In this document: piece by piece, positions 1,597 through 62,750 of the stretch
How the letters are laid out: every line of letters starts with the position of its first letter
Position numbering within the stretch: the first letter of the stretch is position 1
Source of the DNA: Escherichia phage slur16
Sequence record: NC_028248.1
Direction: 5' to 3' (one strand)
Length of the DNA stretch: 64,000 nucleotides
The notes under the pieces: generated by a model
The model's input: the letters and a program-made list of their open reading frames with translations, nothing else
The model's database searches: none
What the model was told of the DNA's origin: nothing
Position numbers and translations under genes: made by a program

Positions 1597-2165
1597 TCAG
1601 CCAGAAATATCTGAACAGGCCCAATTCTACCACGATTTTGACCTGACCTACAGGAGTGCTGCCAGGCGGACGAAATGGGAATACTTCTCATTCTTATAAC
1701 AATTCTCAAATATCAAGGCAGTGAGGCAAATTAATAGGCTAGGCCGTTCACACAGTGGCACAACATTTGCAACCTATCTTGTGGGGGTGAATGAGAATAC
1801 CTATCATTGTGAGAATAGTTATCATTACGGGCAATTTAACATAATACCCATTATGCGCACCACTGGCGATACATACAGGGATTGATAACATGGGTTACTG
1901 TTTACGCACATAACAATTATATTTCTTATTATTTGTGGGGGATATAGTTAGCAGCCGATAGATTAGATATTAACCTGCAGACTTCTGACCGTCCAGACGT
2001 CTAAACGCCCACACACCAAGGATTATACATACACTCCTGAATGTAAACAGGGCCGCAAAAATGCTACCATACAAGCTTGTAAATTTTTCATGCAGCACTT
2101 GACAAAGAGGAGGAAAACTTGTCTGACACTTTAGACACAATAGTGACACAATATGACATAATTGA

Positions 2166-2310
2166 CATGCATGACTGTTTACGCTCTCATTATTCACGCT
2201 ATTACTATTCACTCCCTTTACTATTCACGCTCTTACTGTTTACATGCTTAATAGTACACATGACCAATAGTTTACATAGCTAACTGTTCACGTATAGACT
2301 ATTTACACAA
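2166..2310. repeat. iteron-like tandem array (~8 copies of ~16-bp unit, consensus ACTRTTYACNC)
   Basis: Tandem units such as attattcacgc, actattcactc, actattcacgc, actgtttacatgc, agtttacatagc, actgttcacg, ctatttacac read directly. Confidence 0.5.
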
Positions 2311-2321
2311 AGATGATAAGA

Positions 2322-2577
2322 CATGCCATTCGTTTGCATGACAATAATTATACATGACAATAATCACACTGATTATAATTAGCATGACATAATATAAAAG
2401 CAGGGCAACTATTAGCAGATCTATAGTTGCCTTGCTTGTTATGTCATGATTAACTAAATACAAGGCAACTATGATCTGATTAATAGTTTGCAGACAAACC
2501 ATCACGGGGGTGATGGTTACTGCTTTTATATTATGTCGCGACTCCGTCGCGCCATGCCATTCGTTTGCATAGTTGCC
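2322..2577. repeat. 18-bp direct repeat pair bracketing three palindromes
   Basis: catgccattcgtttgcat at 2322-2339 and 2553-2570; palindromes ggcaactat/atagttgcc (2404-2431), aaccatca-cggggg-tgatggtt (2497-2518), cgcgac-tcc-gtcgcg (2536-2550). Confidence 0.5.
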
Positions 2578-3231
2578 TTATTGTTACGAATAAAACAATT
2601 GCATTGTTAATGATTTCTTATCTTTCTCTTAGTCATCTAATGATTCCAGTCAGTATAGTAATGTACAGTAAACATTAGACGACTAAAGATTTCTCTGTTT
2701 ATTATAACTCACCGTTATAATTTCGAGCTGTTTACGAAAAATGTTGACATCCTAGCCGATTTATGTTATGCAGTTTACACGAATAATTATTTTATGCAGG
2801 TATTGACTATTCCGTTATTCTATGGTTGGAATAAATACTTAGCAGGCTATAGACTGGTGAGCGTACGTAAATTCTGAGATCTGGCGGCTATAGTTATACT
2901 CGATTTTTCACGTAGAACACGCTTTTGTGGTTATGTAAGTGCATGACTTATAAAGATTTTTAGTTGTTGACAAGATATTGGAGATGTGCATCAGGTTAAA
3001 ATTTGTGCAATAGCGGCATTACGTGCAATTTTGGAAGGGAAAACGGGTAAAAATGGCCTTGCTACCACACAATGAAAAATTATGCAATAGTTATTTTCCA
3101 TGTATATTTGTACAGTGTGCGGGATTGATGGCTCGTCAATTATTCCACTTGCCAGGTAGGGCCGTTTATGGTAGGAAAAGAGAAGACAAAAAGAAAGGGG
3201 CTTTAAGCCCCTGACCGTTCATCTTGTTGTA

Positions 3232-3495
3232 TTATTTGTTGCTCATCCAGTTTTCCCAAGCTGCCTGATAATCTGCCTCACTACGGCGGATCTCTTCTTG
3301 TTCTTCAAGTCGGATCTCTTCTTCCAGGTACCCCAAGATGTCAGCCTTTTTGGTCTGGCGTAGCATCCAGTCATCTTTTTTGCGGGTAAAGATCTTATAA
3401 GCTTTCTCGCAAACCTCTTTTTTGCTACCTTTCTGGACTTCCAGAACACGATAAGCCATATATTGAACTAGTTTGAGCTGGTCAAGACGTTTCAT
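3232..3495 (-). CDS. hypothetical protein (87 aa)
   Basis: Track ORF; last gene of the minus-strand early array. Confidence 0.45.
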   Translation of the reverse strand: MKRLDQLKLVQYMAYRVLEVQKGSKKEVCEKAYKIFTRKKDDWMLRQTKKADILGYLEEEIRLEEQEEIRRSEADYQAAWENWMSNK

Positions 3496-34030: not shown

Positions 34031-35987
34031 TCAGCTCACGGTATTCAATCATAGCAGGGGTGTCCCAATATTTCAAGCCTACATGCTTCAAAAGTGGATA
34101 TTTCTTTTCCAATCTTGCAATATAGGCCTTCCCGCATTTGACTCGGTTGGCGATTAAGATTTTGGCACGATGATTTAGCTCACTATGCTTCCACGCGGTG
34201 TTACCTTCCCACTTGTGGAAATGTGGCCGATAATTTCCAAAATCTTGCATGGGGATAATTTTCCCCAATTGTCTATACAGGCTGTCATATGAAGTTTCAT
34301 TTGCTGCGCGAGTCAGTAAGAATTTCCAAGCATCCTCTTTCAACAAATGTTCCACACTCTTCTCTGTAACATACTGGCAATCAGGATCAGTCCAAAGCAG
34401 ACGAGATTCTGATACCAGGTACAGATCTTCCCCTTCAGGAATCTGAAGTGCCGCACGCACACGGTCATAATTTTGCTGGTAGATGTTACTCAGCTGTCCC
34501 AGCCAACAACTTCCACGTTGGATATCACCCTCATAAGGGATGCAGTGTTTAATCTTCCGGAACTCTGCCTTAGTAATACGCTCACGGCGAAAGTAACCAT
34601 CCTTCTCAAGTTTTTTAACCCAATAACCTGGCTCATAACGAGTTTTTGTTTCACCTTTCTTGACAGGTCGGCGAGGGAGCTCTGATAACAATTTGACCGT
34701 ATCTGCAAAGAACGGGTGGTGTGCCGCTTCTTTAAACTCTTCCACCAGATCCGTGTTACGGCAATAGAAAACGTTGCGTCCGGTGATCTCGCTTAAGTAG
34801 TTACACTTATTTCGGTTATATTTGCCGTCTCCGTCGTTAAATACTAAATAGACTCCCCGCAAAAACTCTGACTTTCCATAACGAGCATAGCCTATGCGGC
34901 CTTTATTTAAGCCGCCAGCGAAAATTTCACAATCGCCTAAGTCTCCAAGTCCTGTTTCTTCCCAACGGTTCCACATAAAGTTTTTGCCGAAGATGTGTCC
35001 GAACACCCCACTATTCTTCATCATTTCACGTGCTTCTGCGGAGGTTTTTGCCGTCTCCAGTTCTGCAACAACTTCTGCCCCGCGAAGACGTATACCTTCT
35101 TTGACAAAGGCCTCCAGGCGATCCTGGAATCCACCGTCGTCATGGCCCTCTATGGTCCATTCACGCCCAGGGTTAATATTGCAATCCCCAATAGGAATTT
35201 CCACGCAGATTGCAGGGTAATCGGTCAATGTCTCCAGGAACTTAGAGCGGTAAGGTTGGTGACCCATCACAACACGGCTCTCATCAGAGCTGGTATAACC
35301 TTTCAGGATAGTCATTTTCCAACCATCTTTCTCGTAGCGATACTGCGCCTCAACCTTGTCACCTTCCAGCATCTTACTGGTCATAGGGTCGGTAACGGTA
35401 AACGGAAACTTTGCATAGCGTAGGCATGACGCAATAGCAGTGCGATATTTCAGAACATGCTCTTTCTTAACATGGAACTGAACTTTTACCCCGTTGTGCT
35501 CTTCAGTCTTCCGCTCGCGGATCTTGGTAACGTTTGGGATACCCTGATCCAAGAACAATAGATATGTGCTTTCAACACCGTTGTGCACACTGATCACATC
35601 GAAAGTGTCCACCATGCTGAACGGGGCCTTTGAACCTACACCTTTATTACCTACCAGAGCGTTGCTGTTGCGCTTGGTTGACTCCCCGAGGTTCATGAAA
35701 GTGTTGCGGACCATCTCTTCTGACATACCCAATCCAACGTCCTGCACAAAGAAGTATGGTTCAAGGTCTGTAGGGGAGTGAATGATGATCGGTACATCAC
35801 CCCGTCCAGACTCAACATGGGAGTCCACAGCATTGAAGATTGGTTCACGGCAGCTTGCCAGCACCTTATCTTCGTAAATCCCTTTAATGATTAGCCCAAA
35901 AGTCTCTTTGTTCAGAGAAATTGAGCCCCTGGTGACCTCCATATTTCCGGTTAGTACTGCTTTAGTTTCATTACTGTTTACAATCAT
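34005..35987 (-). CDS. GHKL-family ATPase, rIIA-like
   Basis: N-box EPIFNAVD; G1 box VQDVGLGM; G2 box GNKGVGSKA; 660 aa. Confidence 0.6.
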   Translation of the reverse strand: MIVNSNETKAVLTGNMEVTRGSISLNKETFGLIIKGIYEDKVLASCREPIFNAVDSHVESGRGDVPIIIHSPTDLEPYFFVQDVGLGMSEEMVRNTFMNLGESTKRNSNALVGNKGVGSKAPFSMVDTFDVISVHNGVESTYLLFLDQGIPNVTKIRERKTEEHNGVKVQFHVKKEHVLKYRTAIASCLRYAKFPFTVTDPMTSKMLEGDKVEAQYRYEKDGWKMTILKGYTSSDESRVVMGHQPYRSKFLETLTDYPAICVEIPIGDCNINPGREWTIEGHDDGGFQDRLEAFVKEGIRLRGAEVVAELETAKTSAEAREMMKNSGVFGHIFGKNFMWNRWEETGLGDLGDCEIFAGGLNKGRIGYARYGKSEFLRGVYLVFNDGDGKYNRNKCNYLSEITGRNVFYCRNTDLVEEFKEAAHHPFFADTVKLLSELPRRPVKKGETKTRYEPGYWVKKLEKDGYFRRERITKAEFRKIKHCIPYEGDIQRGSCWLGQLSNIYQQNYDRVRAALQIPEGEDLYLVSESRLLWTDPDCQYVTEKSVEHLLKEDAWKFLLTRAANETSYDSLYRQLGKIIPMQDFGNYRPHFHKWEGNTAWKHSELNHRAKILIANRVKCGKAYIARLEKKYPLLKHVGLKYWDTPAMIEYRELIDTKNNTK

Positions 35988-36484
35988 TTATTGCGCTCCT
36001 TGTAGTAGATATGACTCCCGAATTGAGCTGTCCTCTGCATCTTTTTTGCCCATTTCGGTCGTACTTTGGTTGTATGGTAGTGTGTTGCTCCACCTGTTAT
36101 GTCCATAGCCATGTATGCAACATGGTTGTTATTATAGACCTTTAGAAGCATCTTTGCAAGACTTTTAGCGTGATCCCATGAATCTTTTTCTGTCACCTTA
36201 AAAGTTTTGCCGTGGTTTGTCCACGAAAACTGGTTAGGTTGGTAGACAATCTTTCTTATAGTGTCTGGGTATTTGGGGTGAGATTTCCTGTTTAGTGTGG
36301 CAAATCCTGATGCCAGCATACCCATCGTGCCATCCCCTCTAGCCTCCCTGTAGATATTGCATGCCAGAATGTTTTCCTTAGTATCTGAGGGCTTGCAAGT
36401 ATGATATACTTTTTGTTTTGGTGCTGCAACAACAGGCAGCGATAAAAATGCGCTCAAAATAATAGCAAAGATCTTAATTTTCAC
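35984..36484 (-). CDS. secreted cell wall hydrolase, SleB / Hydrolase_2-like
   Basis: Signal peptide MKIKIFAIILSAFLSLPVVAAP; NIYREARGDG…LNR…QPNQFSW…ATHYH matches the SleB-type pattern; GTG start with GGAG 5 nt upstream. Confidence 0.5.
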   Translation of the reverse strand: MKIKIFAIILSAFLSLPVVAAPKQKVYHTCKPSDTKENILACNIYREARGDGTMGMLASGFATLNRKSHPKYPDTIRKIVYQPNQFSWTNHGKTFKVTEKDSWDHAKSLAKMLLKVYNNNHVAYMAMDITGGATHYHTTKVRPKWAKKMQRTAQFGSHIYYKERNK

Positions 36485-50500: not shown

Positions 50501-53215
50501 ATCTGTGAAGATTGCAGGGTTTACTCTCGCCTGACGTGGAGGGTATCCTGTTGATTGGTTAAACCACTGATTACAAGAGTAATCCCTCATATAGTCATAA
50601 TCAGAGTATTTGTTTGCATCCTCGTTCCAACACATGTTCAGGTTGGTACCACCCATGCATACAATATATTCTGCGACATACTTATCACTTCTGGTAGGAA
50701 TACCTATGAACCATCTGTTAACAGGTTCATCCCAAGCTGTGCGCTCATCTTTAACGCAGATAGCAATCCAGTCATGTGTTCCTGTTTTCTTGCACACATC
50801 TCGCTTCATACCATAGTAGAACTCTTTAGTATTCGGCTCAGGTGCATTTATCAGGTAACTCCATGCCTGATTTGCATAAGTTCCATTGGTGCGTGGATCA
50901 TGATCAAAGGCATACATGATGATCCTTTCCCCACCAAGATGTTCGCCAAGAGTAACTTTGACATTCACATCGCCGTAACCATTGCGAACAACATCCATAT
51001 TATCAATAGAGATACCTCTGGGCGTGTAGGCAATTTTCAGCGAGTTATCTTCACTAGTGCCGCCAAGTGTAATCCCTATGTTGTTTGTTGTCCCGTCGAC
51101 ATATCTTACTGTAGCTTCCCAACGTATTCCGAAATATCCTGCATCATGGCTGACAATTTTCAGTGTACGAGCCCCAGAGTTAGGTTTTCCAGGATCAGGC
51201 CAAGGATCTGGATGTTCATGGACAGTCAACGATGTTCCGTTTTGCTCGTTGACCTGCAACATTTTACCGCCTCTGCCGTTAGGGTTGAACTCCCACAAGG
51301 CTTGTGTTTTCACAACATTGTCATACGTGGTACGTCTCTGATCGTAGATCTCTTGAGTCACATCGTAGGTTACAGACCCGGCATCCATTCTATGGAGTCG
51401 TACCATATACGATGTATCGCCTTCTACAACAGGTTGAGCTGCGTTAAGCCCGAAGTATACAGTATCGTTGACATGGAACTGTTTGTTTCTACCGACAGTA
51501 TGCCACTTGCCGTTGGACGGATACGCAGGAACTATGGTGTTCCAGTTCAAAGTTCTTGTCGTATGGGTTCTGCCTGTGCCATGCTTGTCATGATAGGTTA
51601 TTTTTACAGAGTACAGGCCACGTCTGTTAACATTTCTGTTATACTGGGTAACAACAACTTCGTTGGCCCCACCGTGGTTCCAGTTGGTGGAGAATTGGTA
51701 ATTTGCATCTGTAACAACCGTACCTGCAGCATTTACCAACTCAATCTTGTCAATAATGAACGTAGCCCCCTCTGGCTGAGGCTTCAATTTCATCTTGACC
51801 GTGTCACCAATGTAGATATTGCTAACACTACTAACACCATTAACGTCGAAAATATCATCAACGCCCCAACTGTCTACTGGGACATTTTTATACCAATTCT
51901 CAGGAACCTCTGTGAACCCCTGACTATTAAGTCTGCCGCCAAACAGGTTATTAGAGCCTGCAAAACTTCCCCTTGGGATGCCTGACCACCAAAGTTTGCC
52001 ATTAACAACAGTAAAGGTCCCTAAGAAACCTTCTCTGTGGATACCCTGGAAATAAACACTTTCTGTCCAGCTTACTGGCATCCGTTGCTCGACGTATTTA
52101 GCCGTAGCCAGAGCCTGATAGTGAATAAAATTAGCCCTAGGACTGTTGTTTGCAGATTGTGCACCAATATCATTGCACAGATTGCGAGAGAAGCCACGAT
52201 ACTGTTTGGTGCCATTATTGAAGAAAATGCCACTTGTGCCGTATCCACGAGCCATTATCACCTCATGGGTGTAGGTGATATTTAAGGAACGCCATGTGTC
52301 ATCTCCCCAGACGTCTTGCCCGTAGAATACGTTAACAAGCTGTTGGTCATCAGGTTTGTGCATCCTTTCTGTGGCTATAATTGCACCATTAGGTCCACAC
52401 ATAAACCCTTTCCACTCCTCATCTGCAGGAATGCCCCTCAAATCGTTACGAGTAATCTGCACAGGAGGCCAAACAAGGTCGTTTCTACTGTTATTTCTCA
52501 GAAAGTCGTATCCAGCAATCCAGAAACCTCTAGGACCACCGAAAATAACAGAGTTGTCATGCACCTCGCAGTTGATGCTTGGGTTTTTCCAAGGACCTGT
52601 TTCAGGATTTTCCGATGTCTCACCAATCTTTACAGGGGTTGCATGCTGATTTTTGTCAACATGAAGAGAGCCGTAAGTATTATTGCCAGAGCCGTACAGG
52701 TGAAGCATACCATCAGCCTCTGGTGCAGCAATTACCCACACTGTATTGTTTACGCCACCCATTACTTCAACAAGTCTCTCAGGATGGGTGTCCAAATGCA
52801 ACCCTGTTACGATCTGTTCCGGCAAAGGTGTCCACTCTCTGACACAAACATCGTTTCCACCTGCTGCCTCCGATCCGATAAGACCAGCTGTGCAACCAAT
52901 ATAGAAAAATTTATTATCGAATGTGCGGATTACAAATGCACGGTCAGCTCTCCAAACATGGTCTACGTTCCAAGCTGCCTCATTAGGATAGTTTATTGTA
53001 TCAAGATCTCCAGTCCGACACTCTCCGAACCTATTATAGCCAGTAATATTAAGCTGACCATCATCAAAAAGTATAGCTAAGCTATTTACATAGGATACTG
53101 TGTTGCTTGTACCATCACTGTTGTCTATTGGGTATGACAGAACAGCAAGTTCCTTAATTCCACCCCTCTTATCGAGGAAATGACGACCAAGTTTTAGCAA
53201 AGGGATTGGAAGCAT
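47579..53215 (-). CDS. large tail fibre protein (1878 aa) with Ig-like segment
   Basis: Size and position at the end of the structural unit; segment TWESSNTNIATVDATTGLVTFKATGNVTIKFVVTDDAG resembles a bacterial Ig-like (BIG2) domain. Confidence 0.65.
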   Translation of the reverse strand: MLPIPLLKLGRHFLDKRGGIKELAVLSYPIDNSDGTSNTVSYVNSLAILFDDGQLNITGYNRFGECRTGDLDTINYPNEAAWNVDHVWRADRAFVIRTFDNKFFYIGCTAGLIGSEAAGGNDVCVREWTPLPEQIVTGLHLDTHPERLVEVMGGVNNTVWVIAAPEADGMLHLYGSGNNTYGSLHVDKNQHATPVKIGETSENPETGPWKNPSINCEVHDNSVIFGGPRGFWIAGYDFLRNNSRNDLVWPPVQITRNDLRGIPADEEWKGFMCGPNGAIIATERMHKPDDQQLVNVFYGQDVWGDDTWRSLNITYTHEVIMARGYGTSGIFFNNGTKQYRGFSRNLCNDIGAQSANNSPRANFIHYQALATAKYVEQRMPVSWTESVYFQGIHREGFLGTFTVVNGKLWWSGIPRGSFAGSNNLFGGRLNSQGFTEVPENWYKNVPVDSWGVDDIFDVNGVSSVSNIYIGDTVKMKLKPQPEGATFIIDKIELVNAAGTVVTDANYQFSTNWNHGGANEVVVTQYNRNVNRRGLYSVKITYHDKHGTGRTHTTRTLNWNTIVPAYPSNGKWHTVGRNKQFHVNDTVYFGLNAAQPVVEGDTSYMVRLHRMDAGSVTYDVTQEIYDQRRTTYDNVVKTQALWEFNPNGRGGKMLQVNEQNGTSLTVHEHPDPWPDPGKPNSGARTLKIVSHDAGYFGIRWEATVRYVDGTTNNIGITLGGTSEDNSLKIAYTPRGISIDNMDVVRNGYGDVNVKVTLGEHLGGERIIMYAFDHDPRTNGTYANQAWSYLINAPEPNTKEFYYGMKRDVCKKTGTHDWIAICVKDERTAWDEPVNRWFIGIPTRSDKYVAEYIVCMGGTNLNMCWNEDANKYSDYDYMRDYSCNQWFNQSTGYPPRQARVNPAIFTDTQVFLTKQANEVQTFKNKYDPNKWFYNCYGAFFWGPGELPGGGSCLNEATYASDYIMGQVKKYKIIPGPETLGNAVDPYIIMTALRSNMDGTSMSMQIPVTNGYKRVVMIIKCDLIGKQVLAENGTSTHPFEIALHYQFADSPFAGDKRISDTDAQRCKKVLLGAGWWWYEFDLTDKFTDTSKVVTGLRLDLGENMHKAVCDGTYGDPTIYLKYISFEHPEDVVYGPKLRLFGSWIAKDRVGMGKKVRGFLVDAGTEDMLVNAVWPELPGTQWDNSAKSINWFNIHRAMWTTNCYLWRELNDQAFGFSDGRRMAIICWTTLQRCYDHDYEIGGRAWKNIRDRIITNFADDNGGGAHNFGTSRLIHLNGSSAYKKEGYSGSMIEWGLVKDARVLMGQQLAAAIGPSAVQSVKPAWFDIPLWSPGTPGTAAINPTTGDLEISWEDLKQVGGWDKTGYQVQWWRADGSLAADEFVKDNFYTMSSAKAQQLFGQATPSTITMSMCCKDNRTGALGPRVAKVFSGIKWNLPVQSISWKQIGDNKLLVTPACQFNATLNVDPAVAANSAKASDFSVSNTAMADVRKIDTLNARITCKNTYGTFQIINNFTDADSKVVRTASQTLSLGTLAYAALITEQSATLQGGGVGKSITTPVWKPNEWVVFDLTVDFSSDNNWTWVRNCLSQLMGGPSSVSDSHDSTDPSVFQVGKTHPETGETLPDRKYALVCISYGKADVTFSGTHTYNGTYNFSRKYSLKAGNIIDEVGVLYNPGNGIGIVGGKLQMQEPSITPSNVSGIRKTWESSNTNIATVDATTGLVTFKATGNVTIKFVVTDDAGRKTSSTSFTVKQMAPQWRMWIGTATNGAYPNPAGTSGMKTFSTSKPMEYGSGPKVGQMVYFGAYIPEIIGLPRSQLQLLFGAGVDDLATFGYSDNIEAARSSGWVGFRMESGKEGRILGTASIGVMFPGDQQYRLEAYATFSR

Positions 53216-53265
53216 TGTGTTCTCCAGATAAGAAAACCGCCCCGTCAGGAGCGGTTAGATATATA

Positions 53266-55011
53266 TTAACGTTGTGCAATTACTACGTCTACGATATCAC
53301 CAACACCACAATATGTTAATTGCAGCAAGGTAACACTATTAGCCTTGTTATTAATAACAGGCGTTGCCGACAGGATAGCATACTTATCGTGCAAAGTCAC
53401 GTTGTGACCTACAGCATCCTGAATGACATAGATAACCGCAGTGAATGGATAAGGTTTATCTTCCGCTGATGTACCAGGCCATTGTCCTATTGTAAAATCC
53501 CCTTTCGCGTGGACAACATACATACTGGCCTGCCCGTTAGGTGTCCATGTCCCACTGGACGCGTCAACCTCCTCTAAATCAAAATCTACCTTTCCTGCGT
53601 GGAAAGTAGGGGCAGTAATGGTTTTACCCGCCTCAATTTCTTGAGAGGTGGTTATCTTGCCACTGGAGTTAATGCCATTACAAACAAAGTTGACATTAGA
53701 GAAGTCTGGCAGCCACCCAGTCACTGTGCCGGATATTTCAAGGTTGTGAAGGTAGGTGGTGCCCGTCCCTGCTGCGTTTAAACTAACATCTCCATTTACC
53801 TGCAAGTTTCTGGTAACGTTGCAGTTTTCAGAGTTTGCAGTTGTTGCAGTTAAAGTAGTGGTTGTCAGCTCGGTAATTACACCTTTGTTGGCTGTAAGCC
53901 CTTCCCCTTCAAAAGTTGCACGCTCATTGACTCTTAGGGTATTCAGAGCTATGTTTTGGATAGAGGCTGTACCTCGAACAACTACAGATCCGCCAACTTC
54001 TAAATCACCATTTATTAATGCGTCCCCCGTGCTTTCAATATAGCTAGGGTAAATCATGGTGCCATCGACAGAGTAGGTTATCCCTGTAACAGTGCCTGTC
54101 ACCTCAAGGTTCTTAACCCTGGTGGTTCCATCTACCTGCAATGTCGGTTCGGTTGCTGCCTTCATGGCATTACCACGAATGTACACGTAGTCAAAAAAGT
54201 TATTACCTAGACCATCAAAATGCACATCGTTATTATTAGCCACTGGTTTCCCAGAAGTTATAGTGTCAGCTATAACCCTGTGGGTGGACACTTCATGAGG
54301 TTGCAGCTCTGTGCTTCTCCAGTCTGCATGCTTAGGATCACTCCACGCAAAAGTAAGTGTAGAAGTATTTGCCGTGAGGATTAGGTTCCTGAAGCGTGCA
54401 GTAGAATCTGCTCCATTAACAGGCCCATGTAAGGTGAGTGTGCCACCAACTATAGTGTTAGCAAGTTCTGTAAGACCTTTTACCACCAAAGACCCTACAG
54501 TAACTTTCATTCCCTCCATGGCTTCAAATATGCTATCCACATAGTCAACAACAAACTCTGTGTTTGCTATAGACTCGGATTTGTCGTCCATTGGAGGCGT
54601 AGGTACTCGCGGGTCACCTTCGAACCTCGGACTGTTAAGTTTTGCGTAGTATTTTGCCATTACTGCAGAGTCGGTATATAATCTCCAGTTTGGAGATTGT
54701 GAAGGATCTGCTGGCATTCTAACCGGGTTAGATTTTGATGCTGCGGGAGCGTACCACCACTGAGGGCCTGTGTCCCCTTTAAACTCGTACAGCTGGTTAA
54801 AAACTGTTGTGGATGCACCATACGCCCAAGGGATCGGTGGCGTTTTAAAATAAAGGTTGTCAAGCATGGCTTTTCGTACCGTAGGGATGGTGGTCCCATC
54901 CTCTACGACAACTTCATCCACAGCGTTACCGTTGACAACCAAGTGCAAACGTTCAGAATCAACAATTACTTGATCTACCGCCTGCTCAAAGCTTGTCATG
55001 TCTTGCGCCAT
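53266..55011 (-). CDS. tail fibre / tailspike-like protein (581 aa)
   Basis: Gly/Thr/Asn-rich beta-type repeats; located between fibre genes. Confidence 0.5.
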   Translation of the reverse strand: MAQDMTSFEQAVDQVIVDSERLHLVVNGNAVDEVVVEDGTTIPTVRKAMLDNLYFKTPPIPWAYGASTTVFNQLYEFKGDTGPQWWYAPAASKSNPVRMPADPSQSPNWRLYTDSAVMAKYYAKLNSPRFEGDPRVPTPPMDDKSESIANTEFVVDYVDSIFEAMEGMKVTVGSLVVKGLTELANTIVGGTLTLHGPVNGADSTARFRNLILTANTSTLTFAWSDPKHADWRSTELQPHEVSTHRVIADTITSGKPVANNNDVHFDGLGNNFFDYVYIRGNAMKAATEPTLQVDGTTRVKNLEVTGTVTGITYSVDGTMIYPSYIESTGDALINGDLEVGGSVVVRGTASIQNIALNTLRVNERATFEGEGLTANKGVITELTTTTLTATTANSENCNVTRNLQVNGDVSLNAAGTGTTYLHNLEISGTVTGWLPDFSNVNFVCNGINSSGKITTSQEIEAGKTITAPTFHAGKVDFDLEEVDASSGTWTPNGQASMYVVHAKGDFTIGQWPGTSAEDKPYPFTAVIYVIQDAVGHNVTLHDKYAILSATPVINNKANSVTLLQLTYCGVGDIVDVVIAQR

Positions 55012-55020
55012 GATTTCTCC

Positions 55021-55287
55021 TTAAGCTTTTTGCTCTTCGTTTTTAACGTGGTCAGGGTGCTGGCAACCCCACCGGAGCGAGATGAATTTGCTAATAAGCT
55101 GGGGGCAAGCTACTGAAGGCGCGTATATCCACGCATACCATTCAGGAAGCGTATCATTATACCCCATATGAATAAACACCCCAGTCATCACCGCCATGCC
55201 TATGTTTGACCATAGCTTAGATTGGGACACTTTCGTAGGGTCATCAGATGCCGCAACCAGTCCCCATAAAAACTGAGTTAGTTTCAT
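55021..55287 (-). CDS. small membrane protein (88 aa), holin-like candidate
   Basis: Two or three hydrophobic segments and a charged C-terminus; embedded in the fibre cluster. Confidence 0.35.
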   Translation of the reverse strand: MKLTQFLWGLVAASDDPTKVSQSKLWSNIGMAVMTGVFIHMGYNDTLPEWYAWIYAPSVACPQLISKFISLRWGCQHPDHVKNEEQKA

Positions 55288-55298
55288 TTACCCTCTTT

Positions 55299-56345
55299 TT
55301 AAGCATAAGATATAGTGATCCATTGACCATTTACAAGTTTTTGGATAGCACCTGTCCAGTAATCACCTTGATAAGGGTGTTTATAAGCGTAGTTACCAGA
55401 GCACATCACATGTCCAGGGTAGACTCTTGACTCTCTGTAGGTGGTTTTAAAACGGTTTGCTATCCTTACATCATCAACCCCTCTGCTAGGCATAGGGATA
55501 GTAAGGTTACCGCTACTGTCTGCGCCGTTACCATTTACCCTGCGGACCACGTTTCTTCCACCAACTGTTGCATATTGGCCCCTGACGGTTTCATCGTTAC
55601 AATCAACTCTTCCACCTATTTGAGCGCTTCCGCAGGATTGTTGTCCATTAACAGTGGCTCTTGGTATCGTGACCGCATTGGCATTTGCAGAGGAACTTTT
55701 TGCATCGTTGCATTCAAGATTTCCTTGGATAGCCAGTCTTGCACGGTTGGCAGTTATAGCATTGAGCTTCATAGCTGAAAACACAGGCTGCCCACCAGAA
55801 GGTTGAAATCTCCAACGGAACCCATCTATTTGGTGAGAAGGATCATCAAGGTCTGTGCCGTCAGCACCACCGATGTTGTCCATAATCCAGAAATCCATCG
55901 TCGTCTTGTCTGGAGTTATGGTGGTATATATTGCCGCACTGTCTGTTGACGCAGATGCAAACTCGATTCTTTGAAGACCTAAAGTTTGAGTCTGAGTCAT
56001 TATGTCTCCAGACTTGTCAACATATAGATCGTCCATTTCTTCAGGTGAGTATACATTGAGAACTTGACGTGCAGCAGCTTTGTCTGGAACGTCTGCTAGA
56101 TTATTAGTGACCCTTAAGAATCTATTATCCCATCCTGGGACAACATCTTCTGTTAAATGCTTCAACCACGCAGAAAGCATGTGAAGTTCAAAGTTAACAA
56201 CTTCACATGCCATTCTTTGTGTCATATCCCAACCTTTCAATCTCTCTTCTTTTTTTGGTTGAGATTTATTCAACTCTCCCGTATTTTCAAGCACAACATC
56301 CTGATTGGCCCAAATATCAAGAGGGATAACTGGTTTAGTCATCAC
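55299..56345 (-). CDS. tail fibre protein, paralog B
   Basis: Alignable along its length with 57357..58397; shared termini PLDIWANQD and QKLVNGQWITISYA. Confidence 0.6.
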   Translation of the reverse strand: MMTKPVIPLDIWANQDVVLENTGELNKSQPKKEERLKGWDMTQRMACEVVNFELHMLSAWLKHLTEDVVPGWDNRFLRVTNNLADVPDKAAARQVLNVYSPEEMDDLYVDKSGDIMTQTQTLGLQRIEFASASTDSAAIYTTITPDKTTMDFWIMDNIGGADGTDLDDPSHQIDGFRWRFQPSGGQPVFSAMKLNAITANRARLAIQGNLECNDAKSSSANANAVTIPRATVNGQQSCGSAQIGGRVDCNDETVRGQYATVGGRNVVRRVNGNGADSSGNLTIPMPSRGVDDVRIANRFKTTYRESRVYPGHVMCSGNYAYKHPYQGDYWTGAIQKLVNGQWITISYA

Positions 56346-56431
56346 GTTCTCCTGAGAAAATTCCTTAGGACTATTTTAACACTTTAGAGAACAAAATGCA
56401 AGAACGGAGTCCTTTCCGTTCTGACCTTTGT

Positions 56432-56746
56432 TTACCTTTTACTATGCTCTACGAGCATGTGCAAAATCTTTTGTACATCAGCTCGGATGCCGGAGACATC
56501 TGTCCTGACATCCTGCTTAAGGTCGTTAATATCGGCCTCTAGCTTGCTTAACCGAGTCTCGATAACGGAATCAAGTCTATCTTTTGTAACCATACTGTTT
56601 TTCACTAAGATGAGGTCTTTCTCCAGCTCATCCAACCTCTTGGAAATGCCTTTCCATTTGGTGTGCCACTGGTTGAAAGCCCATACACAGATCGGGACAA
56701 CGGTACCCATGCAGATACCGTACAATGCCGCCAAATCCAACTCCAC
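56432..56746 (-). CDS. membrane-anchored coiled-coil protein (104 aa)
   Basis: N-terminal hydrophobic helix then heptad-like sequence. Confidence 0.4.
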   Translation of the reverse strand: MELDLAALYGICMGTVVPICVWAFNQWHTKWKGISKRLDELEKDLILVKNSMVTKDRLDSVIETRLSKLEADINDLKQDVRTDVSGIRADVQKILHMLVEHSKR

Positions 56747-56757
56747 AACACCTCCTC

Positions 56758-57342
56758 TTAGAGGGTAGGTCGCTCCGGGAAGAAAATGTCAGGGGCTTTA
56801 GATGTATCTATTTCAAGAAGTTTTACCCTGTACATTTTCAAATCTCTGATGTTACGTTTCTGGTCATCAGTAAGATCATATTCAAGGTCAATCATGTCTT
56901 GATAGGCACCAATTCTAGCAGTAGCCCAAGCAAGTTCTGTCTCTATGACACCCTCTGCCTGTTGAACAAAGAATTCATTGTCTGTGACAAATCCATCACC
57001 AACTAAACGCAAAGCGTCGTGGTGAAGCATAATGTTTTCTGGTACCTCTTCTTTTTTGGCGATAACCACACGAAGACCTGGAGCAGGCCATAAGGCATCA
57101 GGTTCTTCTGTAGATGTCTTAAGAATTCCCTTCTCGTCAACAAGCAGGAAGATACAACCTGGATTTTCTTGTCGTAATGTTCGTGACTGCACATACCAAT
57201 CGCCATCATCATTACGTAAAAAATACCCGGTGTATGCGGTGTAATCCTCAACCTCTTGAGGGGTCAGCTCTTTGGTTTCCTTGTTGGCGTGGTATTCGCC
57301 AGATCCCGGTTGGTAAAGTTTAAACTCTTGAAGTATTTTCAT
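56758..57342 (-). CDS. tail fibre assembly (chaperone) protein-like
   Basis: Directly downstream of fibre paralog A; C-terminus …KLLEIDTSKAPDIFFPERP resembles the tail fibre assembly protein C-terminal signature. Confidence 0.5.
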   Translation of the reverse strand: MKILQEFKLYQPGSGEYHANKETKELTPQEVEDYTAYTGYFLRNDDGDWYVQSRTLRQENPGCIFLLVDEKGILKTSTEEPDALWPAPGLRVVIAKKEEVPENIMLHHDALRLVGDGFVTDNEFFVQQAEGVIETELAWATARIGAYQDMIDLEYDLTDDQKRNIRDLKMYRVKLLEIDTSKAPDIFFPERPTL

Positions 57343-57356
57343 GCTAGTCCTCCGAT

Positions 57357-58397
57357 CTATGCATAATTAACAGTGATCCATTGACCATTTACAAGTTTTT
57401 GTAAAGGTCCTGCCCAGTAGGTTGAACCACGCATCTCTTTTTTGTCACCGAAATGCCAGCCTGTGACAACGTAGCCGTTGCGGATTGGAGATTCAGAAAC
57501 GCCGTCCACAAGTCTTGCACCGATTCTGATGTCTTGCACACCTGTCTGCGGGATAGTGATCGTTACATCACCGTTACCGTTAGCCGTCACTCCGTTCACA
57601 GAGCGAACCACATTTCTGTTACCTACAACACAGTGCTGGCTTCTTACAACCATACTGTCACAACTTGCACCACCATTAACATATACTGACCCAGCCGTCA
57701 ACTGACTGGCCACATTACAGTTGGTGAATGTTGCGGTATTGCTGATAGTAAGGTTATTGCACCTCATGTTATCGACAACTTCAACATTGCCTACCACTTT
57801 CAACAGCGCACGGTTAGCCGTGATCGCGTTAAGGTACATCAAAGTGAACTCCGGATTAATATCCGGCTGAGTTGGCTGGAATCTCCAACGAAACGCATCT
57901 ATTGTAGATGTGCCACCATCATCAAACGCCCCAGTATTATCACTTAACCCAAAGTCGAGAGTTGTCTTATCTGGGCCAATAGTTGTCTCTATCCAAGCCT
58001 TATCTGTCTCGGCAGCTTTAAAGTTGATACGTTGCAAACCCAATGGGCCTGTCATTGTATCACCTGTAACTTTTACATACCTGGCGTCTGCCTCTTCCTT
58101 AGTAATAATCCCAAGGTTTCTACGGGCAACAGGAATGTTCAAAAGATCACTCAAGTTATTATCACGTACCAGATAACGGCCTTCTTGAGCGGGGATCTGC
58201 TCGTCAGCAATGTATTTTGCCCAAGTTCCGAGCATATTGAAAATATAGTTAAGTTCTTCACATGAGGGCTTTTGACCAAGATCCCAACCTTTTCTCCACA
58301 AATCATCAATCGGGCGTAGCCTGTTCTGTCTGTGGGTGTTAGGCAGAACCTGATCCTCCTCTGCCCAAATCTCTAATGGAAAACTAGGTTTTGACAT
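57357..58397 (-). CDS. tail fibre protein, paralog A
   Basis: Paralog of 55299..56345; termini PLEIWAEEDQ and QKLVNGQWITVNYA. Confidence 0.6.
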   Translation of the reverse strand: MSKPSFPLEIWAEEDQVLPNTHRQNRLRPIDDLWRKGWDLGQKPSCEELNYIFNMLGTWAKYIADEQIPAQEGRYLVRDNNLSDLLNIPVARRNLGIITKEEADARYVKVTGDTMTGPLGLQRINFKAAETDKAWIETTIGPDKTTLDFGLSDNTGAFDDGGTSTIDAFRWRFQPTQPDINPEFTLMYLNAITANRALLKVVGNVEVVDNMRCNNLTISNTATFTNCNVASQLTAGSVYVNGGASCDSMVVRSQHCVVGNRNVVRSVNGVTANGNGDVTITIPQTGVQDIRIGARLVDGVSESPIRNGYVVTGWHFGDKKEMRGSTYWAGPLQKLVNGQWITVNYA

Positions 58398-58409
58398 TTT
58401 ATCTCCTGA

Positions 58410-60482
58410 TTATGAGAAGTCTGGCGGGACAACATCTTCTACATACCCTTTCAGAGCAACCTGCCCCATATGAAGCACGGTAGAATCTCTAGCGGTAACA
58501 GTGATGCTGTCAGACATTACTTGCGGATATGCCCATACATACTGTTTTACCTCAGGGTATCTATACTCTATAGTTGCCATGTTTCCGCAAATACATCTCC
58601 ATAAAAATTCTTGGTAATTCCTAGTTGGGTCGTAGCCATATACCGGAGCAAGCTCTTTACTAGGAACGAACCCTGCAAGGTATTGTATTTCAGACGGTTG
58701 CCAACCTAACTTAACGATAGGTATGTTTACAGACTCTTTTGCCTTTTCAATACCTCCCTGCATCACCCAATCGTAGCACTCAGTACAGAAGAAATCAAGA
58801 GCACCTGCTTCCTTTTTATATTGGTCAGCAAGGTTCAGCTTTTGCGTAAGCTCGGTTTCCATAATGGTTGGGAAAAACAGCAAAGCTGTCATCTGAGCTG
58901 ATGCAGCGTGTGCCTTTACTGCCTTTGAAATAGCCGCAATACGAGCGCCAAGCTTACCACGACAAAATGCTACATACTTGTCGTAAACACCGCCAGTTTT
59001 AGGATCGTCAATAGTCCCAATATCTAATGCATACTCACCTGTCTCATCATAAAACGCCTGCTTTGTAGGGTAATCATAAATACAAGGTCTACGAGTATCG
59101 GTATTGTACCACCACCACGGTTCACCAACCTGCATAATCACTGGCAGGTTGTTTCTCATAGCGGCTGATGCAAAATTCTTAAATACTGCAGTAAGGAAAT
59201 TCATACCCTCTTCAATGGTTGGAGACAGGAGGTAGCTACAAGGTGTATACCCTGTTTTAGCGTAGTTATCGTTCCAGTCTCTTTGGGTCCATTCCAACGG
59301 GCAGGCATCGCTGAAAAGCTCAAAACTTACAGATTGCATAACGTCGAAGTTATGTCGTTTGGCATTGTACATAAAATCATCATGCCATTTATAAGCTGCA
59401 GCGTTTAGCGCTCCTGTTCTGTTTATAGACCATTGAGTTCCTGACCATGTGTAGTCATAATAATGACTCATACCAACATAATGGTTTATGGTTCCGGTAT
59501 AGCCCAGACGCTTGATATTGTTCAACACCCTTAAAGGAGACACGTTCCACATATCGTCATATGCTGTGCAGATCCCAACGTCGTGTTCTTTCACCTGAAT
59601 ATTGTTAAGTTGCATCATTTTCCAGCCTGTGTCTGGCTGAAGCAGATCTAGGCGCAACTCACACTCTACATTTTCCGTTCTTGGGTTTGTGCTATTGCTT
59701 ACCCAATCTTTAGGCATAAGCGGTATTAAAATCCTTCTCACCTGTCGAGGATCAACACCCATCATATTGTTGTTCTGGTCCATCCCGACGCAGTCCTCGA
59801 AATCAATATGAATTTCTGCAACATTCTTATCCTCTGAGATGCTGACAGCATATTGAGCTAAAGGAACATAGATGATTGTGCCATCAACAAGGTCTACAGT
59901 CATAATCATCTTTTCAGGAGTGGAGAAGTTGCTGGCGTTGGTTATTGACATTCTGAACCAAAGCTTGGTATTTCTCATCTCATAATGATCATCAAACCCA
60001 ATACCGAAATGGTCATACTTGTCAACTGTTTCCCAAATGCACCCAGCCATACCTCCATATGTTCTTGACACTAAACGGTTAATACAACAGTTATTATCTG
60101 CAACAATACAGGTGCTTTCAGTCTGCTGGGTAGTTGTAACCCAATATCTTGGGTGAAACATTCTCTCCTCGACAGTATCCCAAGATATCCTGTCAAGATT
60201 CTCATCTGAAACTATTGTACATTTCGCCCTTTGTGTTCCAATCATCACCCCTTGAGATTTTGATGAAAACTCCATAAAGAAGCTTCTTGGCAACCTGTTG
60301 GGTAATTTGTCAACAATTTCCACTGGGATCTCAATACTGGTTGCCCCAATTGGGATAGTTACATCACCCTCAACATGATTATAATCCCTACCAGGAACGG
60401 CAGTATCCTGAACTGTGCGGTAATGAAACCGTGCAGCCATTGTAGAGTAATCACGGTAAGGTTTAAAAATAGCTGTTGCCAT
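58410..60482 (-). CDS. tail / baseplate structural protein (690 aa)
   Basis: Size, aromatic-rich composition, position between baseplate-like and fibre genes. Confidence 0.45.
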   Translation of the reverse strand: MATAIFKPYRDYSTMAARFHYRTVQDTAVPGRDYNHVEGDVTIPIGATSIEIPVEIVDKLPNRLPRSFFMEFSSKSQGVMIGTQRAKCTIVSDENLDRISWDTVEERMFHPRYWVTTTQQTESTCIVADNNCCINRLVSRTYGGMAGCIWETVDKYDHFGIGFDDHYEMRNTKLWFRMSITNASNFSTPEKMIMTVDLVDGTIIYVPLAQYAVSISEDKNVAEIHIDFEDCVGMDQNNNMMGVDPRQVRRILIPLMPKDWVSNSTNPRTENVECELRLDLLQPDTGWKMMQLNNIQVKEHDVGICTAYDDMWNVSPLRVLNNIKRLGYTGTINHYVGMSHYYDYTWSGTQWSINRTGALNAAAYKWHDDFMYNAKRHNFDVMQSVSFELFSDACPLEWTQRDWNDNYAKTGYTPCSYLLSPTIEEGMNFLTAVFKNFASAAMRNNLPVIMQVGEPWWWYNTDTRRPCIYDYPTKQAFYDETGEYALDIGTIDDPKTGGVYDKYVAFCRGKLGARIAAISKAVKAHAASAQMTALLFFPTIMETELTQKLNLADQYKKEAGALDFFCTECYDWVMQGGIEKAKESVNIPIVKLGWQPSEIQYLAGFVPSKELAPVYGYDPTRNYQEFLWRCICGNMATIEYRYPEVKQYVWAYPQVMSDSITVTARDSTVLHMGQVALKGYVEDVVPPDFS

Positions 60483-61168
60483 TAACCCTCCTGTCTAGTT
60501 GCGTTTACTGTAATACTTTCACAATAAATGGTTGTGGTGTCCCAATCAGGTCTTACGTCAGGAACATACAGCAAAGTAGCCAGCCCACCAACTCCGAATT
60601 GGTTTTCTTCCCACACTGATCCGAAGCCAAGAGCTGTATGGTCCCCTTCAAAACCAAAAGCTTGCCCTTGCGATTCTGTAAGACGCAAATGACAAGGCAA
60701 TGGTAGCATATCTAAGATCTGATCGATAGACTGCAATATGTCAAAGCAAGTTTTTCTAATATTTATGTCAAACCTGAAGTTGTCTCCTTTCCACGTATCG
60801 AAATTGTTTCTTCCGAACAATTGTCGCAAGGTGGAGATGACATCTTCGCGAGTCCCGCCCCTTGATGCTGCGGCCTGCTGAATAATTAGTGTGGCACGAA
60901 AATCAGCATCTGAAAGTCCATTCCTAAGAATACCAAGTTGATTACCAACTTCGTCAAGGTATCTTCCGCTGGCATTGTTAAGCAATCTTCCTTCAGCCAA
61001 ACCTACCAGCATCTTATCAACATCCTCCAACCTTTTAAGGTACACGGTTAAGAATGTGACCAAATTAACCTTCTCAGCCAGAAAATCTCCAGGCAGGTAG
61101 TCAAGACCTCCCTGAACAAAATCTGGCAGAGTGTGGATGTGGTTAACATCCGACTTAATCTCTGCCAT
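60482..61168 (-). CDS. putative baseplate protein (228 aa)
   Basis: Positional; start overlaps upstream stop. Confidence 0.3.
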   Translation of the reverse strand: MAEIKSDVNHIHTLPDFVQGGLDYLPGDFLAEKVNLVTFLTVYLKRLEDVDKMLVGLAEGRLLNNASGRYLDEVGNQLGILRNGLSDADFRATLIIQQAAASRGGTREDVISTLRQLFGRNNFDTWKGDNFRFDINIRKTCFDILQSIDQILDMLPLPCHLRLTESQGQAFGFEGDHTALGFGSVWEENQFGVGGLATLLYVPDVRPDWDTTTIYCESITVNATRQEG

Positions 61169-61179
61169 ATCTCGCCGCC

Positions 61180-62670
61180 TTAAATAGTTTGTTGGAAAGT
61201 TATATTACTTTCGTCGAGGTCAAACACCTCGGTCATGTTCGCAACAATATCGTTTGTAGTGTAAGCTTCATCAGAAGCTCCTACTGGTTTAACTTGAATT
61301 ACCAGTCTATTAAATCTGCCTATTGATACAGCAGCAGATGCAGCGCCGACCAATTGGATATTATACAACGTATCTGCAACATCCAGTCCGTTAACAACCT
61401 GCAAAAGAGCCTCTACAATGGCATCTTTTTCGGTTGTGGAAAGTGCGGCACCGGAGTAGGTAATTCTTACATCTAGGCGGTAGGTATTTGCCTTGGAGTA
61501 ATAAATTCTTTCAGTTTGACCATCAGATGTAGTGACATCGTAGAAAATATTACCATAAGTCCTGTTAGTACAGGCTATAGTTTGGTAAAGTGCTTGGCAA
61601 ATGTCCTCCGTTGCACCACCAAACACAACCACTTGGAACTTGTAAGGAGGTATACCTTTAGCATCAGTTTTATCGGTGTTGTTGGAGAACACCCTCACTT
61701 TCTCAACACCTTTCACCTCGCTTACAGCGCTAAGGATTGCAGGACGGGTAGCCTTAGATGTTAACTGTTTTGTGCTGGAAGCTCTTAAGCGATACTCTGA
61801 GTCTTTCTCAACATCCCTGCCCTCATTGAATCTTTCTCGGTTGGTAAGCTTGATAAATCCACTGGGAGTAGGTGACATTGTTGTCACGGTTTCTGCCTCT
61901 CTTGACAGCTCACCAGCCTCGTTAGCGATAACATCCAGGGTGATAGTTCTTTCCCCTACAATCGGGGATACTCTGAAATCTACTCTACTATTAAGTCCAA
62001 CTTGATCAAGATTCGAATTGTACCCTATCCACAACGTTCCTGTCAACATATCGACCTGAATCAAATCGTCGTTCAACAGGGTTGTATTATCGACAATGAA
62101 TTGCTTAATCTCTCCGTAAAAGCTTGGCAAATCAGAAGAGTCCAGAGACTTATCTGTTAAAACCAGACTTTTTGTTTTGATACTTCCATCTGTCTGGTTG
62201 GTAATTTGAAAGTTGTATTTACCAATCCTTAGGTCTGGAGCATTTATTCTGTGAGCAATAAGATTCCCTGCTACTTGCACATCGTTGCTAAGAACAAAGT
62301 TGCCACTGTCCAGCGTATAAGTTTTGGAATCATAAATCATATTGTACGGCACAGTTGTGTTGATTGTCAACTGGCAGGTACCTGATGATTTAGAACGGCC
62401 TCTTCGGTAAATACCCTGTCTTCCAAGAAGCTCATCCAGGTAAATACCTTCTGCCCCATACAGCGTCTGTGATGCGTATACAGATGCTGCCATAAGAATA
62501 AGTTGATACTCTCGCTCGTTGAAGATAGTGGTCAGCTTATCTGCAACGGAGTTACTCTGTACGTTGAAGTTTTCGCCAAAAGCACGGATCAGGCTTTGCT
62601 TAGTTTCAACGATTAGGTCATTTAGGGTTGGTATAACGAAACCAGCCTCTGTCAATCCATACTTAGCCAC
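61180..62670 (-). CDS. putative baseplate wedge protein (gpJ-like)
   Basis: Positional and size only; not verified by motif. Confidence 0.35.
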   Translation of the reverse strand: MAKYGLTEAGFVIPTLNDLIVETKQSLIRAFGENFNVQSNSVADKLTTIFNEREYQLILMAASVYASQTLYGAEGIYLDELLGRQGIYRRGRSKSSGTCQLTINTTVPYNMIYDSKTYTLDSGNFVLSNDVQVAGNLIAHRINAPDLRIGKYNFQITNQTDGSIKTKSLVLTDKSLDSSDLPSFYGEIKQFIVDNTTLLNDDLIQVDMLTGTLWIGYNSNLDQVGLNSRVDFRVSPIVGERTITLDVIANEAGELSREAETVTTMSPTPSGFIKLTNRERFNEGRDVEKDSEYRLRASSTKQLTSKATRPAILSAVSEVKGVEKVRVFSNNTDKTDAKGIPPYKFQVVVFGGATEDICQALYQTIACTNRTYGNIFYDVTTSDGQTERIYYSKANTYRLDVRITYSGAALSTTEKDAIVEALLQVVNGLDVADTLYNIQLVGAASAAVSIGRFNRLVIQVKPVGASDEAYTTNDIVANMTEVFDLDESNITFQQTI

Positions 62671-62750
62671 GTCACTCCTCCGGTATGAAAATCTCTACAA
62701 GGTATTTTACCAAATTTTGTAACAATAGTCAATCTGAGCATAAAAATAAA

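Follow-up and report, generated by a model that had tools for sequence, protein, structure and literature searches.

The rV5-like myoviruses of the genus Vequintavirus are already described as carrying two short tail fibres. In phage rV5 these proteins, gp30 and gp33, share 42.3% identity and a likeness to T4 gp12, and they were suggested to serve "two chemotypes of LPS" (lipopolysaccharide; Kropinski et al. 2013, PMC3606486). The annotation of the BASEL Vequintavirus phages likewise gives two paralogous short tail fibres and a Mu U-like chaperone (Maffei et al. 2021, PMC8594841). Fibres related to these have been placed on the baseplate with the help of cryo-electron microscopy (cryo-EM): the phiTE short tail fibre attaches to wedge protein 1 by its N-terminal domain, and gp147 of phi92, which is fibre III of that phage, points downward and hangs below the wedge. 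Here we analyse the corresponding locus in 64,000 nucleotides of Escherichia phage slur16 (NC_028248.1), a stretch that we call the window. The locus holds two short tail fibre genes (STF1 and STF2), one gene for a tail fibre assembly protein (TAP, here also the chaperone) and two small open reading frames (ORFs), p104 and p88, named after the length of their products in amino acids (aa).

Positions 53000-60500 of the window are 100% identical to Escherichia phage slur12 (LN881735), and about 100 other rV5-like Vequintavirus phages match them at 98-99% DNA identity. Every member of the gene cluster lies on the minus strand, and the cluster genes correspond one-to-one to genes of rV5, with STF1, TAP, p104, STF2, p88 and a 581-aa fibre equivalent to gp33, gp32, gp31, gp30, gp29 and gp28, respectively. 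This is the same locus as rV5 gp33-gp29 and its BASEL counterparts (98-100% DNA identity, fibres about 43% identical to each other), without a sequence difference between the systems. For its phage group the locus is an ordinary one: the module for short tail fibres in a myovirus of the rV5 type, most of it already published. Because the two fibres, the chaperone and the idea of two LPS specificities are found in Kropinski et al. 2013 and Maffei et al. 2021, the core finding and its main interpretation are known. These papers do not discuss three aspects that we describe below: the slot held in relatives by a third membrane protein, p157; the co-varying C-termini of the two fibres; and the relatives of gp29 in lysis cassettes. 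Our reading of the module is that two fibres of one family share a single chaperone and that p88 acts in lysis control; taken as a whole, we regard it as rather probable.

Two paralogous short tail fibres

STF1 (57357..58397, minus strand, 346 aa) and STF2 (55299..56342, minus strand, 347 aa) are 43% identical over their full length (BLASTP, E=7e-95), and both match the family phrog_4465, "tail fiber", from end to end (2.4e-171 and 2.1e-166). The ORF of STF2 extends to 56345, which gives 348 aa from a GTG start, and public records begin at the ATG at 56342, which has AGGAG about 7 nt upstream. The original prediction took ORFs 57357..58397 and 55299..56345 for paralogs with conserved termini and diverged centres. 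The paralogy is borne out, and so is the conservation of the last ~20 aa, but in 25-aa windows a central block at aa ~110-215 is also among the best conserved parts (44-64%); the most diverged stretches, at 24-36%, are aa 49-109, 205-253 and 301-337. All genes of the fibre module have a dN/dS of 0.02-0.06 (dN/dS and dN were calculated within the genus Vequintavirus, seven genomes compared). The fibre lengths vary only in pangalan among these seven genomes, where STF2 (L010, 3001-4035) has a 3-aa deletion and is 344 aa long.

Both proteins are related at their N-termini to fibres of known position. STF1 aa 1-108 and STF2 aa 1-83 match the phiTE short tail fibre 9cuy_c (E=1.3e-19 and 1.1e-9), and gp29 of phage LL12 aligns to phi92 gp147; the phiTE fibre (PDB 9CUY) and phi92 gp147 share a homologous N-terminal region of ~100 aa with STF1 and STF2. 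In phiTE and phi92 there is one such fibre per wedge, whereas rV5-like phages encode two. At the other end, the C-terminal ~60 aa of STF1 match the Mu tail fibre S (PDB 5YVQ) by two routes: phmmer aligns aa 286-343 to 5yvq_A with E=1.9e-6, and Foldseek returns the same chain as top match of the STF1 model (E=2.7e-6), a model of low confidence with a pLDDT of 62. The fold search with the fibre models returned the Mu S-chaperone complex and nothing else. STF2, in contrast, has no match to Mu S at E<=1. We thus picture STF1 and STF2 as probable members of the Mu S and phi92 gp147 fibre type, which points down from the baseplate and is built of a domain for wedge docking at the N-terminus, a shaft, and a tip at the C-terminus.

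One chaperone gene beside two fibre genes

The gene directly downstream of STF1 (56758..57342, minus strand, 194 aa; rV5 gp32 equivalent) encodes a tail fibre assembly protein, with 45.7 bits to Pfam PF02413 Caudo_TAP (cut-off 22.1; 9.1e-12), a match to phrog_136 at 1.2e-35 and a dN/dS of 0.040. The Mu chaperone U (PDB 5YVQ) belongs to the same Pfam family and is likewise encoded right after its fibre. A second copy was found neither in the window nor, at the sensitivity of tblastn, anywhere in the complete slur12 genome, where one place matched, and STF2 is followed by p88 instead. The earlier observation that only STF1 is followed by an assembly-like gene is therefore correct.

How the second fibre is served is suggested by the fibre C-termini. 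STF1 and STF2 are most alike in their final ~20 residues, and within the last 20 codons an identical codon is used at 9 of the 10 conserved degenerate residues, compared with 54 of 144 over the whole genes. Two fibre copies also occur in a diverged metagenomic contig (L014, from ENA), which allows the endings to be compared between lineages. The ending is lineage-specific and shared within a genome: ...NYA and ...SYA in slur12, ...VQTL in both L014 copies. The L014 fibres are identical over the last 21 of 21 aa despite 14 differences among the 63 nucleotides, and the chaperone itself is only 46% identical between the slur12 lineage and L014. This co-variation within genomes fits selection by a common partner, for which the single chaperone is the obvious candidate. 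We infer that one chaperone of the Mu U/lambda Tfa type most likely folds both fibres.

In Mu, the alternative fibre tips each come with a separate chaperone on an invertible segment. The slur locus differs from this arrangement of tip-specific chaperones in having two permanent fibre genes, one chaperone and no invertible element. We rejected a switch that inverts or recombines STF1 and STF2, as suitable repeats are lacking: all that was found at the STF1/STF2 locus is one direct repeat of 62 nt, located at the 3' ends, plus inverted repeats at chance level.

Origin of the second fibre

Two fibre copies are limited to rV5-like records and contig L014 (positions 116-3254). Avunavirus, Seunavirus, Mydovirus, Certrevirus and the phi92-like phages have a single short fibre, and STF1 is the positional and sequence orthologue of the one in sister genera, to which it is 47-51% identical, against 45% identity of STF1 to STF2. 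A neighbour-joining tree joins the clades of STF1 and STF2 as sisters (84% bootstrap) and gives STF2 the longer branch. The two genes also differ in rate, with a dN/dS of 0.024 for STF1 and of 0.061 for STF2, whose dN is three times that of STF1, and between slur12 and L014 the STF1 proteins are 73% identical versus 47% for STF2. STF2 thus appears to have arisen by duplication in an ancestor of the rV5 lineage, as a lineage-specific and faster-evolving paralog.

Gene order suggests where the copy lies relative to the older arrangement. Single-fibre relatives have the order STF-TAP-p104-p157-p88-LTF (long tail fibre), in which p157 is a 157-aa polytopic membrane protein whose gene overlaps p104 by 4 nt. 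There is no counterpart of p157 in rV5-like records and no remnant of it in the window; STF2 occupies its slot between the two membrane-protein genes. An uncultured lineage, L016, has neither p157 nor STF2.

Two sets of records among the relatives carry unexpected labels. Some 16-22 GenBank entries of the MG0656xx series, deposited as "Campylobacter phage" with host C. jejuni, are 98-99% identical to E. coli rV5-like phages, which looks like host mis-assignment or contamination. Salmonella phage R7 (PQ002170, L004) has Demerecviridae in its taxonomy line, yet its fibre module is Seunavirus-like, with the gene order of GAP31 and of PVP-SE1.

Docking motif, tip and receptor

The two fibres differ at both functional ends. 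STF2 has replaced near-invariant N-terminal family residues, for example PIDDLW by KKEERL, whereas STF1 keeps PIDDLW. The tip of STF1 carries the motif TGWxFGxKKE(L/M)RG, which is common to the single-copy orthologues and the phi92-like phages; STF2 lacks the motif and has a different tip sequence. STF1 is the conserved orthologue that keeps the ancestral docking motif and tip, and STF2 the copy that changed both; STF2 would make up another type of short fibre, which contacts the cell surface differently and may also attach to the baseplate in another way. Had the paralogs been alike in their predicted receptor-binding region, the original prediction of two receptor-binding specificities would have lost its ground; in this lineage they are not alike, with the tip motif replaced and the Mu S match lost in STF2. 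Two fibre types with different tips therefore stand. The step from different tips to different receptors is a tentative one, given the near-same tips in L014 and the shared LPS core glucose discussed below.

The main competing explanation is that the two fibres are redundant or structurally complementary, binding the same LPS core glucose, and that the duplication served dosage, a second docking position or reach. Every one of the Vequintavirinae tested depends on a single, common LPS core glucose; all BASEL members, whether they have one fibre or both, fail on waaC and waaG mutants; and there is little allelic variation in the short tail fibre paralogs (Maffei et al. 2021, PMC8594841). Together, the shared core glucose and the scarce allelic variation argue against two distinct specificities on K-12. 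The altered N-terminal motif of STF2 would fit a change of docking site better than one of receptor. In L014, moreover, the two paralogs are 52% identical overall and have differing shafts but nearly the same tip, with a near-identical C-terminal ~60 aa; this speaks for gene conversion, or for selection that makes the tips uniform in that lineage, and implies that tip divergence is a trait of the cultured genus and not the original benefit of the duplication. Against redundancy stands the tip of STF2 in the cultured genus, which has lost a motif conserved from phi92-like phages to STF1 together with any match to Mu S. STF2 is also kept under purifying selection, and its dN/dS suggests a maintained, distinct function. 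Redundancy or structural complementarity is thus possible but, in our judgement, doubtful.

The LPS data, the paucity of allelic variation and the L014 tips are also the first of several points that count against our own reading. The monomer structure models are of low confidence (pLDDT 62 for STF1 and 58 for STF2), and we did not use them for domain boundaries. Detection of the fibres in virions is a further one: the main text of the rV5 paper reports gp30, gp32 and gp33 as detected by proteomics, but the mass spectrometry (MS) table in its Additional file 5 (PMC3606486) has 19 proteins, none of them of 346, 347 or 194 aa. Since the text makes the claim and the supplementary table lists neither fibre, we set the rV5 proteomics aside as evidence for both fibres in the virion. 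The last point concerns the promoter-like motif upstream of STF2, described in the following section, which is short: at least two matches occurred in 7 of 100 shuffles.

Transcription of the STF2-p88 unit

The spacer between p104 and STF2 (56346..56431, 86 nt, minus strand) contains a hairpin with a U-rich tail, then the motif TGTTAAAATA, then the Shine-Dalgarno sequence AGGAG. The hairpin (56401-56422) is terminator-like, with a fold of -24.4 kcal/mol (z=-2.7), and shows one compensatory change, A-U to C-G, in phage SYGMH1. The elements TTGCATTTTG, TAAAATA and AGGAG are kept in the diverged contig L014. The late-promoter-like motif at 56372-56381, upstream of STF2, is the sequence of "P030", a putative late promoter listed for rV5 and present in the rV5 literature merely as a listed motif. 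It has two copies in the window, the other at 62703-62712 upstream of the baseplate J gene (rV5 P036). From these sequence elements, STF2 may be transcribed from its own late promoter behind the hairpin. The unit that runs from STF2 through p88 ends with the 581-aa fibre gene and an intrinsic-terminator-like hairpin (53235..53256, minus strand) with a 9-pair stem followed by a T-run, which matches rV5 t028.

p88 as a candidate lysis protein

The gene behind STF2 (55021..55287, minus strand; rV5 gp29 equivalent) encodes p88, a small membrane protein of 88 aa that matches phrog_1322 (2.7e-32) and belongs to a DUF2644-like family. In the rV5 gene table gp29 is unannotated with no transmembrane domain (TMD) listed, and gp31, the p104 equivalent, is marked "membrane protein, 1 TMD" (Kropinski et al. 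2013, PMC3606486). Word-indexed homologue searches with p88 and p104 found close relatives alone. An exhaustive search with p88 found 29 representatives with the conserved motif SHTKxWSNIG...EW...SK..SLR.G, and all aligned family members match phrog_1322. One of the 26 members scanned matches DUF2644 (3e-4), and precomputed matches exist for P0054, P0066 and P0077. The relationship of p88 to DUF2644 is distant, and by the Pfam threshold p88 is not a member.

We looked up the neighbourhoods of nine distant p88 family members; the roles of some neighbours were confirmed with Pfam or PHROG, and others were read from sequence features. Seven of these contexts adjoin endolysin candidates (Peptidase_M15_4, M15_3, Amidase_3, M15-like, peptidoglycan-binding-like) and/or Rz-like spanins. 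The cassettes include those of L018 (a coiled-coil/TM (transmembrane) protein, a Peptidase_M15_4 endolysin, the p88-like protein and a spanin-like pair) and of L023/L024 (a coiled-coil/TM protein, a Peptidase_M15_3 endolysin, the p88-like protein and an Rz-like spanin). In L019/L020 a two-TM holin-like protein and an M15-like protein precede the p88-like and i-spanin-like proteins, and in L022 the p88-like protein is followed by an Rz-like i-spanin and a lipoprotein o-spanin. L017 has a coiled-coil/TM protein, the p88-like protein and an i-spanin-like protein, and L021 a protein with a peptidoglycan-binding-like C-terminus before the p88-like one. In L028 (4428-5734) an Amidase_3 endolysin, the p88-like protein, an i-spanin-like protein and a 52-aa ORF lie inside the baseplate cluster. 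This contig belongs to an uncultured 104-kb myophage and has its lysis cassette between the sheath initiator and wedge genes. In L026 and L027 the p88-like gene lies in baseplate/fibre modules, in L026 with a p104-like gene as its immediate neighbour.

The occurrence of distant homologues in lysis cassettes makes p88 a reasonable candidate lysis protein. In the window its gene lies in the late structural operon, behind the late-promoter-like motif. The holin of rV5-like phages has been reported as not identified; their spanins lie beside the terminase and their endolysin elsewhere. A paper on the ASEC2201 holin deals with Drexlerviridae and has no bearing on this question. Holin genes are known to follow tail-fibre genes, as with T4 t after gene 38 and T7 17.5 after gene 17. 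Like these, p88 is a small late membrane-protein gene after fibre and chaperone genes, and the spanins beside the terminase are T7-like as well; unlike them, p88 has weak hydrophobic segments and no sequence similarity to T4 t or T7 17.5, so that its holin role is that of a candidate. Going by this genomic context, p88 would most likely act in lysis control as a holin or antiholin, a new lead for this gene. Lysis was one of the functions proposed for the embedded membrane proteins in the original prediction, and p88 gives it some support in this indirect form.

Several features speak against p88 as the holin. Its two hydrophobic segments (~23-43 and 49-72) are weak, with Kyte-Doolittle peaks of 1.27 and 0.95, so that the original description of a small multi-TM protein fits only as far as two segments are present; it is not clearly multi-TM. 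The C-terminal tail has three basic and three acidic residues and is hence non-basic. Against Pfam, including DUF2644 (PF10841), p88 itself gave no match even at E<=10. No endolysin gene adjoins it in this genome, and rV5 gp129 was proposed earlier as holin. Finally, at least one distant cassette, that of L019, has a separate holin-like gene besides the p88-like one, so that an accessory role instead of that of the holin is conceivable for p88. Kinship of p88 with Mu gp24 was also considered, and rejected at an hhalign probability of 0.04%.

In phage ECP26 (MK883717; L008, 4045-4328) the p88 gene is unannotated; inside it the deposited sequence has an N and is shifted in frame by one base, which probably reflects faulty sequencing and no loss of the gene. 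The p88 homologues in L014 (3265-3618) and L016 (8026-8400) have a C-terminal extension of ~30-40 aa in which Tyr, Ser, Asp and Arg are abundant, e.g. RYSDSGYPGYSDSRYSEYSGNRYSD; slur12 lacks this extension.

p104 and its place in the cassette

The ORF between the chaperone and STF2 (56432..56746, minus strand; rV5 gp31 equivalent) encodes p104, which matches phrog_5345 (1.5e-48), a family of unknown function. It was predicted to be a TM coiled-coil protein, and indeed aa 3-25 form one clear hydrophobic segment, behind which comes a tail of ~78 aa that is helical and coiled-coil-like. With an acidic N-terminus and a basic junction behind the TM segment, the charge distribution of p104 suggests an N-out/C-in topology. 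Pfam searches with p104 and p88 gave nothing or generic coiled-coil noise (XhlA, DUF1664, E~0.01). Purifying selection on both (dN/dS 0.036 for p104 and 0.023 for p88) indicates that they are genuine genes. The virion proteome of phage W70 does not include the products of the ORFs that lie between the two fibre genes; a paper on the "proteomics" of an O177 phage is purely in silico and was of no use here. Both proteins would then be non-virion inner-membrane proteins made late in infection, with p104 as a membrane-tethered helical protein that accompanies p88. That p88 (gp29), probably together with p104 (gp31), forms a lysis-timing device of the Vequintavirinae inside the tail-fibre operon, of holin/antiholin or releasin-like kind, is a proposal that we make tentatively.

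In Av-05, Seunavirus, phiTE and an Aeromonas phage, as well as, with weak similarity, in phi92-like phages, the gene after the chaperone encodes a p104 homologue. The order and gene sizes of the p104/p157/p88 cassette are kept in the flagellotropic phage phiTE and in Aeromonas phage PhAER-3, the latter having a short fibre with a different C-terminal part and, after it, a gene without similarity to the slur12 chaperone.

Synteny in this interval, which reaches from the chaperone to the following fibre gene, is deep and strict from Escherichia phages to those of Aeromonas, and would also be expected if the membrane proteins were assembly factors, that is, inner-membrane tethers or scaffolds that help to fold or attach the flanking fibres. 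The persistence of p104 directly after the chaperone in phi92-like phages and the 4-nt overlap of p104 with the following gene in relatives agree with this. However, p88 homologues occur in cassettes without any fibre genes (L018, L019, L022-L024), the position of a holin gene right after tail-fibre genes has the precedents of T4 and T7 named above, and we know of no precedent for membrane-anchored fibre chaperones. An assembly role is thus unlikely in our view.

Within lysis, p104 could act like the Mu releasin gp25, which frees a secreted or membrane-held endolysin. Mu gp25 and p104 are alike in length (~100 aa) and in layout: the N-terminus is short and acidic, a single TMD and a basic junction come next, and the domain behind them, which in p104 is predicted to be cytoplasmic, is helical. 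In addition, the phage encodes a SleB-like cell-wall hydrolase (35984-36484, minus strand, 166 aa; rV5 gp2 equivalent) beside rIIA, with the typical N-terminal signal sequence MKIKIFAIILSAFLSLPVVAAP...; a relative of this hydrolase has been implicated in lysis in the literature. A secreted SleB-like lysin would fit pinholin- or releasin-type lysis. Yet none of nine p104-family members matches DUF2730, the family of Mu gp25, hhalign gives p104 and gp25 a probability of 4%, the topology of p104 is a prediction, and coiled-coil proteins are trivially alike. The two share size and architecture without detectable homology, the likeness is one of analogy, and a releasin role for p104 is improbable. 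The i-spanin (Rz) was rejected as an identity of p104 for its predicted C-in topology and the absence of an adjacent lipoprotein gene; the spanins assigned beside the terminase in LL12 and rV5 also speak against it.

The original prediction went on to suggest that the embedded membrane proteins might exclude superinfecting phage. In full, this reading would combine two receptor specificities with membrane proteins that mask or alter the receptors. Exclusion genes do lie beside receptor-binding genes in some phages, e.g. T5 llp, PHROG labels phrog_1322 "moron", and the STF2 tip differs from that of STF1. But the cassette keeps its order and sizes in phages with unrelated fibre C-termini and chaperones, including the LPS-independent, flagellotropic phiTE. 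Conservation whatever the fibre tip or receptor argues against an exclusion role tied to the receptor, and this part of the prediction is not supported. Expression in the late structural operon would be poor timing for exclusion, the distant p88 homologues are in lysis cassettes, and neither p104 nor p88 resembles known exclusion proteins. We consider superinfection exclusion unlikely, and the combined reading very improbable.

Flanking fibre and baseplate genes

On the p88 side, the 581-aa fibre (53266..55011, minus strand; rV5 gp28 equivalent; phrog_4549, 1.1e-251; dN/dS 0.035) is the counterpart of the phiTE gp241 long fibre, and its orthologues in L014 and L016 carry the Pfam domains Phage_phiTE_241_N and _C. 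Upstream of STF1 and in the same operon, a 690-aa fibre (58410..60482, minus strand; rV5 gp34 equivalent) has Calx-beta and N4 gp65-like TIM-barrel domains (PF23845, 2.5e-80; PF23844; PF03160), and fibres of the rV5 gp34 type are reported to bind the N4-glycan receptor. It is preceded by a small baseplate wedge protein (60482..61168, minus strand; rV5 gp35 equivalent; phrog_4056 "baseplate protein", 9.4e-103), which by synteny with phiTE wedge protein 1 is the probable docking partner of the short fibre, and by a baseplate J-like wedge protein (61180..62670, minus strand; rV5 gp36 equivalent; PF04865), the first gene after the P036 motif. In the phi92 paper (PMC13450770, section 8), legend and text disagree on whether gp145 or gp146 has two conformers per wedge.

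Conclusions

Phages of the rV5 type are common candidates for therapy and biocontrol of pathogenic E. coli, and engineering their host range depends on which short fibre commits the phage to infection and on whether the chaperone is shared. Of more consequence than the fibre result is gp29 with gp31 as a concrete candidate for lysis. If p88 does act there, phrog_1322/DUF2644 would be an unrecognised family of lysis proteins across many uncultured phages.

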